The notes under the pieces: generated by a model
What the model was told of the DNA's origin: nothing
Databases searched by the model: none
What the model saw: only the letters and a program-made list of their open reading frames with translations
Shown: piece by piece, positions 1-5,013 of the stretch
How positions within the stretch are numbered: the first letter of the stretch is position 1
Layout of the letters: each line of letters begins with the position of its first letter
Position numbers and translations under genes: made by a program
NCBI GenBank assembly: GCA_010093705.1
Contig: MU006107.1
Location: 418,031-482,030 of the forward strand
Length of the DNA stretch: 64,000 bases
Direction: 5' to 3'
Origin: Patellaria atrata CBS 101060
Taxonomy: Eukaryota

Positions 1-688
1 CCTGCGACTCCCACTGACTTGTAGCATTATCTAAGTCTGAAGTTGCATTCGCAACTTTCCCCGCGGCAGCTTTGGGGCCTTTCTCTTTGAGTTTATCCGC
101 CTTTTTGTTCGCACTATCAATATCCTTGGCCATTGCTGCAAGGTTTCCACTTATTGTAGACATGGCCTGCATCTCACGATTTGTGCGCTCGTAGTCCCTC
201 AGAGGTCGTTCGACATCAGTCTCAATTCTAGTTGCAAGAGTGTGATGAGAGTCCGCGATGGCTTCAGTCGAACTTATTATTCTATGCCAGGGTTGGGAGA
301 ATATCCTAGGGATACCTTAACTTACTCCGGCAAGCAAACTGGTATCAAGAAGATGTCTGTACATACCCTAAGTCGGACGACTCATCTGGACTTGGTCTTC
401 TCGCCAGTTTCCGCAGCCCTTGAGCGTACGCTTCTTCGATCCTCCGTCTCTCCTGTATATTCTATTAGCGCAAGGATTGGGCGTTAGAAAGCCGCGATGT
501 TAACCTGCAGCCAATCCGCGATTTCCGAGTTGATTTTCCCAACATGCTTAACCCTATCTAAAAGTATGGTGACGGCTTGCGACGGTTGGAGGGTAGCCTT
601 GCAGCAATTTTCTCAGTACTCAGTACATAGCATATCCAGTGTGCACACTCACCAGCATTGCTGGGTATTCCTGCCTCTGGAGATCCAT
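1..688 (-). CDS. syp1: Syp1/muniscin (FCHo-like F-BAR) endocytic protein, 5' part; gene runs off the left edge
   Basis: Manual splicing of 4 exons (ATG at 688; donors GTGAGT, GTTAAC, GTATGT) gives MDLQRQEYPAML-ATLQPSQAVTILLDRVKHVGKINSEIADWLQ-ERRRIEEAYAQGLRKLARR...IFSQPWHRIISSTEAIADSHHTLATRIETDVERPLRDY, the FCH/F-BAR N-terminus typical of fungal Syp1. Not present in the ORF track. Confidence 0.8.
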
Positions 689-1205: not shown

Positions 1206-2871
1206 ATGTCACAGTCTCATCAGGCAATGACGTGGCGGTCATCTATTAGCTTCTCCGATAGACTCTCCATCATCGTTAAAATGCACGTACGTCTATCTCC
1301 TTGAGTGCTTACAAATTCTTTCGTCTGTCATGTCTCTCTAAATTGAAATTCGTTTTCGGTTCCATATCTTTCTGCGTGTTAATGTTTTGCGTCCGAAGAA
1401 ATTGCCGAACCATTTACAATAGTGCTATCACTATGGGCTTACAGTGTTTCGCAGCAACTCGTTCTATAGAACTGCGAATCCTCATATATCAGTACCAGTA
1501 GCTCATCAAGAAGCCAAAAAATTAGAAGGCGAGGCGTATAACTCTGCTTCATCCAGTGTAAGAGGACCTGAATTCTGTAACAACAGAGACTGATGAGCGA
1601 GAGGCCGATTATGAGGTGCGCTGTCAGAACATAATCTCACAGCTTGAATTACAGGCAGAGACATGTGATTCTCCCTTAGAGGTGAGTAAATCGCTGAAAA
1701 AAAACTACTTTTTACGCCAAATCCCTCTTTCTTCAAGCAATGCCGTAACAATCCAATATTCACATATTGGTAGGATCCAGAGGAATATCCTTCCGAACTC
1801 TTACCTGCGCCTATCCAAATTGGGCACTATAAGCATGCACACCACCATAGATCCGGACTTTTTTCTCATGTGTATAGAGCACCCACCCTAGAAAAGCGGT
1901 CTGAGGATTCTGTACTATCGAAGAATAGGCAGGAATTTGTAGCCTTGAAGGTGACGACGCCGTCGCTGATGACAGCTCCCCATGATTCCCGTCGAGAAGC
2001 ACGTATATTATCTACCGTAGAGGGGCCAAATATCCTTCGTCTTCTAGACACATTCCAGCAAGCTGGTGACCATCTCGTCCTTGTATTTCCGTTTATGTCA
2101 CACGATCTTGAGACTCTCATTAGGCTCAAAAAGTTATCAAAGCGGCATTCGAGGTCTTGCCTCCAAGATATGTTCACTGGACTCGCTCATATACACTCCA
2201 GAGGGATAATACACAGGGATATCAAACCTTCAAATATTCTCCTGCGTTCCATATCTGGCCCGGCATATATAGCAGATTTCGGGATAGCCTGGTCCAATAT
2301 AGACCCTTCCAGTGAACCGCCGGACGAGAAAATCACAGACGTAGGTACTACATGTTATAGAGCACCAGAGCTTCTTTTCGGGAATACACATTATGGGTCT
2401 GCTATAGACCTCTGGGCAGCGGGGTGCGTCGTTGCAGAAGTTGAGGACTCAACTATCGACAGTCTCTTCGATTCGGGAGATCTTGGAAGTGATCTGGCTC
2501 TAATTAAGAGCATATTTGAGAGTCTAGGCACTCCCGATCTTATCACCTGGCCGGTAAGAAGATCCAATGTTCAATTTCTGTGCTAATTCTTGCGTTCAGG
2601 AGGCTGAAACATTCCGAGACTGGGGGAAAATGATGTTCTACGAATACCCCGCTCGTAAATGGAGCGAATTACTTCCTAATGCATCTGATCCTGCTAGAAG
2701 CCTAGCAAGTAGTTTGGTGCAGTACCAAAGTTCCCTTCGACTCTCAGCGGAGGAGGTAATTGCCCTTCTGGTTGCCCTCGCTCGTTAAGTAGTCCATTAC
2801 TTACACTTATTCCTCAGGTTCTAAAACATCCTTTTTTTTGCGGCGAGGATTCAATAGAAAAAGGGCAATAA
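1206..2871 (+). CDS. Csk1/Cak1-like CMGC Ser/Thr kinase (putative CDK-activating kinase) with N-terminal KIX-like helical domain
   Basis: Kinase motifs SGLFSHVY, VALK, HRDIKPSN, DFG, DVGTTCYRAPE, DLWAAGC. Exons approx 1206(or 1227)-1282, 1455-1557, 1604-1681, 1774-2552, 2600-2756, 2818-2871 (ends VLKHPFFCGEDSIEKGQ*). Confidence 0.8.
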
Positions 2872-3690
2872 ATTGACGTTCGTGTAGCTTCGGTAGTGAA
2901 GTGATTTCAACATTGCCGGTTCTATCTCCGAACCTCCTCTCACCGTAGCCATTTCAAGCTTCTATATTCAAACCGTCCTCTCGTCAGCACTTACTCCATC
3001 ATTGATCTTAATCAACACATCTTATGTCGGAATCTTGACGAGTAGAGTGCTTTTAAAGAGAAGTTGTGCGGCTACAGTGGAACTCAAAGCTTGTTTCGAT
3101 AGTTATGTATCCGGTAACGAGTGTCATTACCTATATATAAGACACTATTCTAGGGTTGGGCTAGGTCTTATGTACATTATGTAAATGCGATGGGATTACC
3201 TTACCGTATCCTTTGAATTTCCTGAATGTGTAAGTGGTTCCGTTGTGTTTACCTTAATCGGTGAATTTAGTTCAAGATGAAGTTACTCGTAGCGTCAGGG
3301 GCTACTAGAATATCTAGCGCCAAGCAAGACCGAATGCCCTGGTTGCCGGTTGCCCCGCAGAAGCGGCCTTGGGCCTTGGGCTTCTATCTTAGTTCTAAAC
3401 ATCAAACGTTCCCATCACTTATTGTATTATTACTGAACGTTTTGAGTTGCATGAATTTGCTTCCAACTCTCTGAGATCCTCGGACTATCTCAACTTTGGA
3501 ACTAACCCCCCACTTAGTACCGCACGCAATCTTGTTCAACCGGCTTTTATTTTAGGTTCTAATACCTGATTTATGCCTCGATTTCGCCTATAGCAGCTCT
3601 ATTACAGCTGCCGGTATCTCACCTTCACAATCTCCCAGGTCCCAAGCATTGACGAGGGTGTTCGTATAAAGAGAAGCCAAAGCCGGCAAG

Positions 3691-5013
3691 ATGGCCTTTC
3701 TATTCTCCAGAAACAGGCAGAAAGGTAATATGGACCTGGTCAAAGGTACGAAAGAACTCGTCCTGAAATGTTTGGCGGAAGAGAAACCACAACCGAAGGT
3801 AAAGACCGCCTGGCGTTTCGATTTGGAGCAATTAACCTTATTTGATATAGACAGAGGAGGAATTGGCACGAAATCTTGCTCAGATGAAATTAGTACTTCA
3901 GGGTACACCAGGTTGATTCTCCCCAATATACTCACTCGATGATTTGTGATTAAACTCATACCACTTAGAGCAGGAAGTTAGTCCGGACCAAGTTCTCCAG
4001 CTCATTCAACTACTACTCCAAGAAGACCTTTTATTGTCACTCGCGAACACAATTCACAAGCTACCTTTCGAATCGCGCAAGGACACCCAGGTCATAATCG
4101 CAACTGCTCTCCGTTTCAAGACCAACTCGAGTACGGCCGACGAGCCTTTCGCCCTCAATACTATTATCTCGCAACGGCCACAACTCATAGTAACATTATG
4201 CAATGGGTACGACCGGAGGGAAAGTGCAATGCCCTGTGGCGGCGTCCTACGAGAAGCTTTGAAGTATGATGCGGTGGCTGCTTTGATCTTGTACGATGAG
4301 CCTTCTGCAGGAGGTCCACCAAACCTAAGTCGAGAGCTAAATACATCGGCCCCTGCTAAAGGTGATGGGGTGTTCTGGAAGTTTTTCGACTGGATCGATA
4401 AATCCGCCTTTGAAGTGAGCGCAGACGCCTTCAACACATTCAGGGTGAGACTAGAAAACCTATGATTTCCTGTCAGTCCATCCTGCTGACAGCGAACGAA
4501 GGAGATTTTGACGAGACACAAACAACTGATCGCTACGTTTCTGGAAGTGAATTTTGACCTCTTCTTCCAGAAGTATAACCGCATTTTGGTACAGTCTGAT
4601 AGTTACGTGACCAAACGACAGTCTATCAAGTTACTTGGAGAAATTTTGCTCGACAGAGCAAACTACAATATCATGACCGCATACGTAGCCTCGGGCGAGC
4701 ACCTGAAAATCATAATGAAATTGCTCTTGGACGAGAGGAAAATGATCAACTATGAAGGATTTCATGTATTCAAGGTAGGTAAATCGCTTGATCTAAGGGT
4801 ATCAACAAAATTCTGACGTAATTCCAGGTTTTTGTAGCGAACCCAAATAAGACGGTATCTGTTCAGCGCATGTTGATCAACAATCGAGAAAGACTGTTGA
4901 AATTCCTTCCCGGTTTCCTGAGCGATCGAAAGGAAGATGATCAGTTCATGGACGAGAAGAGCTTTCTTGTGCGGCAGATCGAAAACCTGCCACCACAGCC
5001 GGTACCGACATGA
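3691..5013 (+). CDS. hymA: Mo25/HymA (CAB39-like) scaffold protein, 5 exons
   Basis: Mo25 motifs LPFESRKD, FEVSADAFNTF, SYVTKRQSIKLLGEILLDRANY, EGFHVFKVFVANPNK, DDQFMDEK; 4 introns reconstructed; stop TGA 5011-5013. Confidence 0.92.

Follow-up and report, generated by a model that had tools for sequence, protein, structure and literature searches.

A probable fusion of a MED15-type KIX domain to a Csk1/Cak1-type protein kinase in Patellaria atrata and other filamentous ascomycetes

Cyclin-dependent kinase (CDK)-activating kinases (CAKs) are usually described as constitutive and little regulated, and Csk1 of S. pombe and Cak1 of S. cerevisiae are not known to carry more than, in essence, a kinase domain. 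Here a gene of the Dothideomycete Patellaria atrata CBS 101060 is described, which lies at 1206-2871 on the forward strand of a 64,000-nucleotide (nt) stretch of contig MU006107.1 (the window, to which all positions refer), and whose product very probably represents a real fusion of an N-terminal KIX domain and a Csk1/Cak1-type kinase.

Papers on filamentous fungi treat the Csk1/Cak1-type family as monomeric CDK-activating kinases. The kinome table of A. nidulans pairs An-Cak1 (AN0699) with S. pombe csk1 and N. crassa div-4 (NCU04426), and the AN0699 deletant is reported there as viable with a strong growth defect (PMC3591445). According to titles in the reference list of the same paper, S. 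pombe Csk1 activates Cdk9 and Mcs6. In F. graminearum, the single CAK1 orthologue FgCak1 (FGSG_04947) is reported as not essential and cytoplasmic, and as binding both Cdc2A and Cdc2B in two-hybrid and co-immunoprecipitation assays (PMC4470668). An-Cak1 was purified with no co-purifying protein listed in the accessible part of that paper, and was spread throughout the cell with no defined localisation (PMC3944740). The word KIX has 0 occurrences in the FgCak1 paper (PMC4470668) and in the An-Cak1 paper (PMC3944740).

The combination of KIX and kinase has been catalogued before: one sentence in the Discussion of KIXBASE (2017) names protein kinase or kinase-like domains, besides MED15, as companions of MED15-related KIX domains (PMC5668377). 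The P. atrata protein probably belongs to the same family; the KIXBASE text, as far as accessible, names no kinase family, taxa or function. Literature searches on KIX with CDK-activating kinase, kinome, fungi, Med15 and div-4/NCU04426, outside of which lay the KIXBASE supplements and database, returned no functional account. A preliminary description of this DNA had stated that no functional description of the architecture was known, which agrees with these searches as to function, although the architecture itself had already been noted by KIXBASE (PMC5668377). The architecture is thus catalogued but functionally unexplored, and the window adds one unannotated member.

Predicted gene structure and in-frame splicing

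In the public annotation of P. atrata CBS 101060, the locus is represented by a 298-amino-acid (aa) protein (P0001), to which the kinase open reading frame (ORF) at 1774-2553 is 100% identical. That model is truncated at the N terminus: it begins within the first kinase strands, with a Met that is absent from the genomic frame, and everything upstream of 1774 is missing from it; its tail differs as well, the last intron being read through. By homology, window 1206-2871 on the forward strand is a predicted six-exon gene with a 1,248-nt coding sequence and a 415-aa product; of the gene span of 1,666 nt, 418 nt are introns. The features are as follows:

1206..1282 (+), exon 1: start ATG, W-R turn and KIX helix 1 as far as its middle; phase 2 at the 3′ end
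1283..1454 (+), intron 1: 172 nt; GC-AG ends under the model that fits best
1455..1557 (+), exon 2: rest of helix 1, then loop and helix 2, up to and including the A-x-S turn preceding helix 3
1558..1603 (+), intron 2: 46 nt, GTAAGA...AG; branch-like CTGAT at 1590
1604..1681 (+), exon 3: KIX helix 3 plus the start of the acidic linker
1682..1773 (+), intron 3: 92 nt, GTGAGT...TAG
1774..2553 (+), exon 4: remaining acidic linker, followed by the larger part of the kinase domain (VALK, HRD, DFG, APE; no GxGxxG)
2554..2599 (+), intron 4: 46 nt, GTAAGA...CAG; CTRAY site at 2583
2600..2755 (+), exon 5: kinase C-lobe; agreement with the public P0001 extends to here
2756..2817 (+), intron 5: 62 nt, GTAATT...CAG; not spliced out in the public model
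2818..2871 (+), exon 6: last part of the kinase domain, H-P-F-F motif common to homologues, stop TAA
1224..1672 (+), KIX-encoding span: residues 7-83 of the spliced product, with introns 1 and 2 inside; family-profile positions 2-78/82

Profile A3, a hidden Markov model built from the N termini of 23 homologues only, with the window product excluded, scored the spliced product at 81.2 bits across residues 7-83. Among the 1,932 ORFs of at least 20 aa in the window, the three exon ORFs occupied ranks 1-3 against this profile, on the correct strand and in the correct order: exon 2 scored best (27.6 bits), followed by exon 1 (23.7 bits) and exon 3 (7.8 bits). The spliced product also aligned from residue ~7 to residue ~405 with full-length homologues, with gap-free junctions, at identities of 54% to P0002, 52% to P0137 of Phyllosticta, 37% to a Colletotrichum 'csk1' (P0266) and 37% to a Fusarium homologue (P0405). 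The preliminary description had quoted pieces of the encoded peptide and proposed that three small exons missed by its ORF list are joined in frame by splicing to the kinase exon at 1774; the pieces are present in the sequence at the places given for them, and the profile ranks together with the gap-free homologue alignment argue for the predicted splicing. In relatives, uninterrupted ORFs harbouring both KIX and kinase (392-402 aa) were found on contigs from assembled runs, with lengths of 1,355 nt (P0025), 1,708 nt (P0017), 2,922 nt (P0002) and 1,385 nt (P0274). Because the P. atrata gene needs 1,666 nt with 418 nt of introns, such contigs, which are too short for the five introns seen in the window, would most simply be spliced transcripts.

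The 5′ end of the gene was placed at 1206, as the ATG at this position is the first in-frame one past a stop at 1134-1136; a second in-frame ATG is found at 1227. A gene start inside exon 2 was ruled out, as the frame of exon 2 is without ATG. Introns 2-5 all have GT...AG ends and lengths from 46 to 92 nt. For intron 1, all GT or GC donors in 1240-1329 were combined with all AG acceptors in 1380-1499, and 10 pairs kept the frame open. The GC donor at 1283 (AT|GCACGT), paired with the acceptor at 1454, gave the best fit of the 10 to the family profile (86.3 bits, with no indel) and a length equal to that of homologues, while the best canonical pair (GTACGT at 1287 with AG at 1422) scored 69.1 bits and would place 13 extra residues midway along helix 1. 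The remaining acceptors were dropped after all 10 open pairs had been scored. A GC-AG intron 1 is therefore modestly favoured over the GT-AG alternative, and under either choice the KIX exons remain in frame with the kinase. A perfect GTACGT sits four bases after the GC donor GCACGT (window 1283-1288), and the annotations of several homologues read K-M-Q-V... at the site of intron 1, as if gene predictors had met the same problem there.

The KIX domain, the linker and the kinase

The N-terminal 80 residues of the window product form a genuine KIX domain, of MED15 type. Profile A1, built from 11 N-termini, was searched against 1.84 billion representative proteins and returned 154 matches at E<=1e-3 and 25 at E<=1e-10, with the best down to 1e-22. 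Among the 150 matches listed, Pfam KIX_2, KIX or Med15_N was found at E<=1e-6 in 112, and these comprise plant MED15-like proteins with tandem KIX domains, CBP-like proteins and fungal Med15 proteins that have Med15_fungi (for example, P0243 and P0246). The others listed are 12 KIX-kinase proteins, 25 proteins without a family (mostly fragments of 42-181 aa) and one with PH_28 only. Among PDB sequences, the top 11 matches of A1 and the top 14 of A3 are all KIX domains, every KIX class with a solved structure being represented, with profile E-values of 5.5e-5 for CBP, 6.3e-5 for C. glabrata Gal11, 2.2e-4 for yeast Med15 and 2.3e-4 for Arabidopsis MED15a, followed by p300, RECQL5 and ARC105. Comparison of A3 with 20 Pfam-delimited KIX domains by hhalign gave a probability of 98.6% and an E-value of 9e-16 over 70 columns that include the W-R start and helix 1. 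When 21 full-length homologues were scanned with Pfam, KIX_2 was found in 14 at E<=1 and in six at E<=0.001, with one (P0017) above the gathering score (25.8 versus 25.6 bits); P0083 additionally matches Med15_N. Exons 1-3 of the window, submitted to Pfam singly, matched no family, these exons being too short (25-34 residues) for the result to mean anything, and a search of the ESM Atlas with the KIX part of P0137 gave no usable match.

The residues that characterize the domain are retained as well. A3 shows no variation at the R or at the helix-3 Y, while F, A, E and S each recur in at least 90% of the sequences and W in at least 70%. The KIX core, defined by alignments to CBP and to Pfam-defined KIX domains as the starting W, the helix-1 R, the helix-2 E...Y, the A-x-S turn and the helix-3 Y, is present in full in the window product, where exon 2 aligns with the helix 2-3 signature of CBP.

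The fold was modelled on homologues. An AlphaFold model of P0137 residues 1-85, computed with A3, has a predicted local distance difference test (pLDDT) value of 89.6 and helices at 3-6 (a short turn), 9-26, 32-49 and 53-83; in a model of full-length P0017, the same three-helix bundle is followed by a linker (73-86) with pLDDT <50 and then by the kinase. A three-helix bundle of ~80-90 residues after a short turn, as is characteristic of KIX, is thus predicted by both models. In a Foldseek search against PDB, the top 15 matches to the model were all KIX domains, with probabilities from 0.96 to 1.00 and TM values from 0.55 to 0.76. With VIA-align, the top 18 rows were all KIX domains (Z from 8.0 to 11.6) and the next fold followed at 7.1; Gal11p ranked highest (Z 11.6; 1.8 Å over 80 of 85 residues), and the Z scores of CBP, C. 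glabrata Gal11, RECQL5, p300 and ARC105 were 10.7, 10.5, 10.2, 9.9 and 8.0, respectively. The preliminary description had read the N terminus as KIX and had named a profile comparison and a predicted structure as the checks; the profile comparison identified KIX, and the predicted bundle found KIX domains as its 18 best structural matches.

Among characterized KIX systems, that of Med15/Gal11 (KIX_2, PF16987; PDB 2k0n and 4d7x) is the closest: it is the best Pfam family of the homologues and their best structural match, the profile-profile match extends over the full length, and residues Y658 and K662 of CBP are missing in both. It differs in that the P. atrata KIX is carried by a protein kinase rather than by a Mediator subunit, and the identity is 10-14%. 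The Med15_fungi domain was found by Pfam in 0 of the 21 homologues scanned, with Pkinase behind the KIX in 21 of 21 and no Q-rich region. The KIX of CBP/p300 (PF02172; PDB 1kdx, 1sb0 and 5svh) shares the helix 2-3 signature A-K-x-x-E-x-x-x-Y-x-x-A-x-S-x-x-x-Y and the fold, but its phospho-KID contact positions are not kept in the window and the P. atrata protein has no HAT, TAZ or bromodomain neighbours. In CBP, Y658 and K662 contact phosphorylated CREB, and both are reported as missing in MED15 (PMC3936767). The corresponding positions, numbered by counting along the alignment from L664 as the anchor (title of PDB 4i9o), are E/A in the family consensus and S/L in the window in gap-free alignments. 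Because Y658/K662 are replaced by S/L in the window, the domain is, as judged from the alignment, not a phospho-KID reader of the CBP kind. A third system, the KIX of the RECQL5 helicase (PDB 4bk0 and 9ei3), resembles the P. atrata protein in being a docking module carried by an enzyme (sequence-profile E-value 0.003); however, it lies C-terminal to the helicase and binds RNA polymerase II, whereas the P. atrata KIX is N-terminal to the kinase, and the identity is 8-12%.

Several A1 matches combine two to four tandem KIX domains with a SOCS box (P0129 and P0151), an IBR half-RING (P0125) or a RING-variant (P0163); these would be KIX arrays on ubiquitin-ligase-type modules. In addition, the 1,031-aa P0140 was matched partially at 12 places by the profile's first half, and its only Pfam match is a kinetoplastid PH-like domain; it is probably a repeat mimicking helix 1, not KIX.

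The remainder of the 415-aa product consists of a short, acidic and poorly conserved linker (~25-30 residues), which follows the MED15-type KIX (~7-75), and the kinase. Both landmarks of the linker could be placed in 87 family members, a partial count of the KIX-kinase proteins examined; among these the linker has a median length of 24 residues (range 19-51), and in 81 of them it is net acidic. The ORF of exon 4 matches Pfam Pkinase at 7e-38, and the nearest solved kinases are CDK7 and CDK2 (~1e-31). The catalytic motifs VALK142, HRD233, DFG254 and APE283 are all found in the product, while GxGxxG was absent when sought across its whole 415 aa; where the glycine loop would be, the family has a conserved G-L-F-S-x-[VI]-Y. 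By its sequence, the kinase is a divergent CDK-like enzyme with intact catalytic residues and no glycine-rich loop. This likeness, a CDK-like catalytic domain without a glycine-rich loop, is shared with the monomeric CAKs Csk1, Cak1, An-Cak1, div-4 and FgCak1, and the missing loop is presumably a hallmark of Cak1. Sordariomycete orthologues are named 'Serine/threonine-protein kinase csk1' by their sources, and the Fusarium homologues of the P. atrata kinase carry the same KIX. These names and the tables in the papers make orthology with Csk1, Cak1, AN0699 and FGSG_04947 likely, and the earlier assignment of the kinase as Csk1/Cak1-like agrees with the CDK-like motifs, the lack of GxGxxG and the source names.

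Spread and annotation in relatives

The species-named cluster representatives of KIX-kinase proteins span five classes of Pezizomycotina: Dothideomycetes (Westerdykella, Trichodelitschia, Phyllosticta and Eremomyces), Lecanoromycetes (Agyrium and Teloschistes), Eurotiomycetes (Ascosphaera), Pezizomycetes (Peziza) and Sordariomycetes (Colletotrichum); three more KIX-kinase clusters were found (P0143, P0149 and P0180). The KIX profile matched 27 of 120 listed kinase homologues, and 27 of the 30 that are at least 370 aa long. In the Sordariomycete list, it matched 116 of 120, and 114 of the 116 with at least 370 aa, three Fusarium species being among them. Because the KIX-kinase form is spread over the Pezizomycotina classes and lists, the fusion is placed, on sequence grounds, before the radiation of Pezizomycotina.

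The gene is mis-annotated in P. atrata and several other genomes, where it is truncated, split or merged with its neighbour, so that domain-based surveys undercount the KIX-kinase architecture; some homologues are already labelled PF16987 in precomputed Pfam. In three Pleosporales (P0124 of Exserohilum, P0127 of Decorospora and P0133 of Ophiobolus), the KIX exons appear in the annotation as stand-alone hypothetical proteins, 76-125 aa long. Pezizomycotina include Aspergillus, Neurospora and many plant pathogens. The conservation of a docking domain on a CAK-type kinase in five of their classes suggests that recruitment or autoregulation matters there, and the role of the KIX is testable in model fungi with existing deletion strains (An-Cak1 and div-4).

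Proposed role and alternative explanations

In the explanation we favour, the KIX would be a docking module that binds a short amphipathic helix of another protein. KIX domains bind amphipathic helical peptides, such as activation domains, in a hydrophobic groove. The candidate partners would be a CDK substrate, the cyclin of that CDK, or a component of the transcription machinery with a motif like an activation domain, and docking would keep the kinase beside the T-loops that it phosphorylates. Every characterized KIX class in the match lists is a protein-docking module (as judged from PDB entry titles), with RECQL5 as the precedent of an enzyme. Taken whole, this explanation is in our estimate somewhat better than evenly balanced; its specific part, docking of the kinase in trans on the helical motif of a partner, is argued by analogy and stands a little short of an even chance.

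A number of observations weigh against it. At the level of domain identity, 20 of the 21 homologues fall short of the gathering score of KIX_2, no KIX family is found at E<=1 in seven of the 21, no Foldseek E-value reaches 0.001, and the fold, Pfam and profile tests were run on homologues rather than on the spliced product of the window itself. At the level of the gene, the two sequencing runs covering the stretch are genomic contigs, colinear and with no joints, and homology is what shows the splicing; intron 1 requires a non-canonical GC donor, the canonical GT-AG option being one that would disrupt helix 1. Orthology to yeast Csk1/Cak1, AN0699 and FGSG_04947 is a likely assignment taken from source names and paper tables. 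As for docking, the W, R, E, Y, A-x-S and Y conserved in the family are the general KIX core and hence give no pointer to a ligand site. The purification of An-Cak1 without a listed partner and its lack of a defined localisation (PMC3944740) speak against docking in trans, and a cytoplasmic FgCak1 does not suggest stable recruitment to chromatin (PMC4470668).

The rival explanations differ in what they leave intact. That the three small exons do not belong to the kinase gene, being a small gene of their own or degenerate remnants joined in frame by accident, is very improbable: their omission from the public P0001, the 76-125-aa KIX pieces annotated alone in Exserohilum, Decorospora and Ophiobolus, and the lack of a canonical donor for intron 1 in the best model would all fit, but a single chain carries both KIX and kinase in 27 of 30 and in 114 of 116 homologues of at least 370 aa, some one-chain homologues are on contigs too short for introns, and the pieces in the window are colinear and in frame with no indels at the junctions. 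That the likeness to KIX arose by convergence, with a generic bundle of three helices matching the motif by chance, is hardly credible. Helical bundles do easily reach middling structural scores, with which Foldseek E-values all >0.001 are compatible; however, sequence profiles by themselves find KIX (112 of the 150 matches listed, with E-values down to 1e-22), the hhalign probability of 98.6% over 70 columns covers helix 1, and KIX domains fill the 18 best structural rows, set off by a gap from whatever fold comes next. By the profile and hhalign comparisons, convergence is already contradicted.

The other rivals accept the KIX and dispute its partner. In the main rival, the domain would be an intramolecular regulator that binds its own kinase domain or the acidic linker. 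It would either stabilize the active conformation as a built-in, cyclin-like element, these kinases being active with no cyclin, or form an autoinhibitory lid released by a partner. The ligands of KIX domains include acidic-hydrophobic stretches, and the linker is short and net acidic in nearly all members counted; the domain order and the linker length are kept across five fungal classes, and An-Cak1 was purified alone (PMC3944740). On the other hand, the linker is of pLDDT <50 in the full-length model, which does not show the KIX packed on the kinase, and its sequence is not conserved. Overall we regard an intramolecular role as unlikely, though worth keeping in view. Less probable again is a tether, in which the KIX would bind a surface of RNA polymerase II, Mediator or an activator so that transcriptional CDKs (the Cdk7, Cdk9 and Cdk8 orthologues) are activated on chromatin. 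The RNA polymerase II-bound KIX of RECQL5 is among the best structural matches (Z 10.2), the closest match, the KIX of Gal11p/Med15, is an activator-binding site, and S. pombe Csk1 activates Cdk9 and Mcs6 (reference titles in PMC3591445). Such a tether is hard to reconcile with FgCak1-GFP in the cytoplasm (PMC4470668) and An-Cak1 throughout the cell (PMC3944740); moreover, the identity to the RECQL5 KIX is only 8-12%, and no Med15 association domain is present. We consider the tether decidedly unlikely.

A bolder version of the docking explanation is that the KIX makes the CAK of filamentous ascomycetes activator-guided, reading activation-domain-like helices as the Med15 KIX does; it is quite unlikely in our estimate. 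The Med15 KIX reads zinc-cluster activators such as Pdr1. If this version were true, CAK activity would be brought to particular promoters or CDK-cyclin complexes, and the T-loop phosphorylation of Cdk7, Cdk8, Cdk9 or Cdk1 would be licensed locally by transcription factors. There would then be a direct wire from activator recognition to CDK activation that is lacking in yeasts and animals.

The genes that flank the kinase in the window were also noted. The next gene downstream, at 3690-4816 (+), encodes a Mo25/HymA-like scaffold protein, with Pfam Mo25 at 2e-36 and 5e-41 on two exon ORFs. 'Mo25-domain-containing' proteins of Cenococcum geophilum (787-788 aa) share a 90% cluster with the kinase P0002, and because of this clustering the kinase-Mo25 neighbourhood appears to be conserved, the two genes apparently having been merged by the Cenococcum annotation. 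Upstream, a 105-aa ORF at 2-316 (-) runs off the start of the window; it is helical and charged by eye, matches no Pfam family, and is probably the last exon of a divergent gene.

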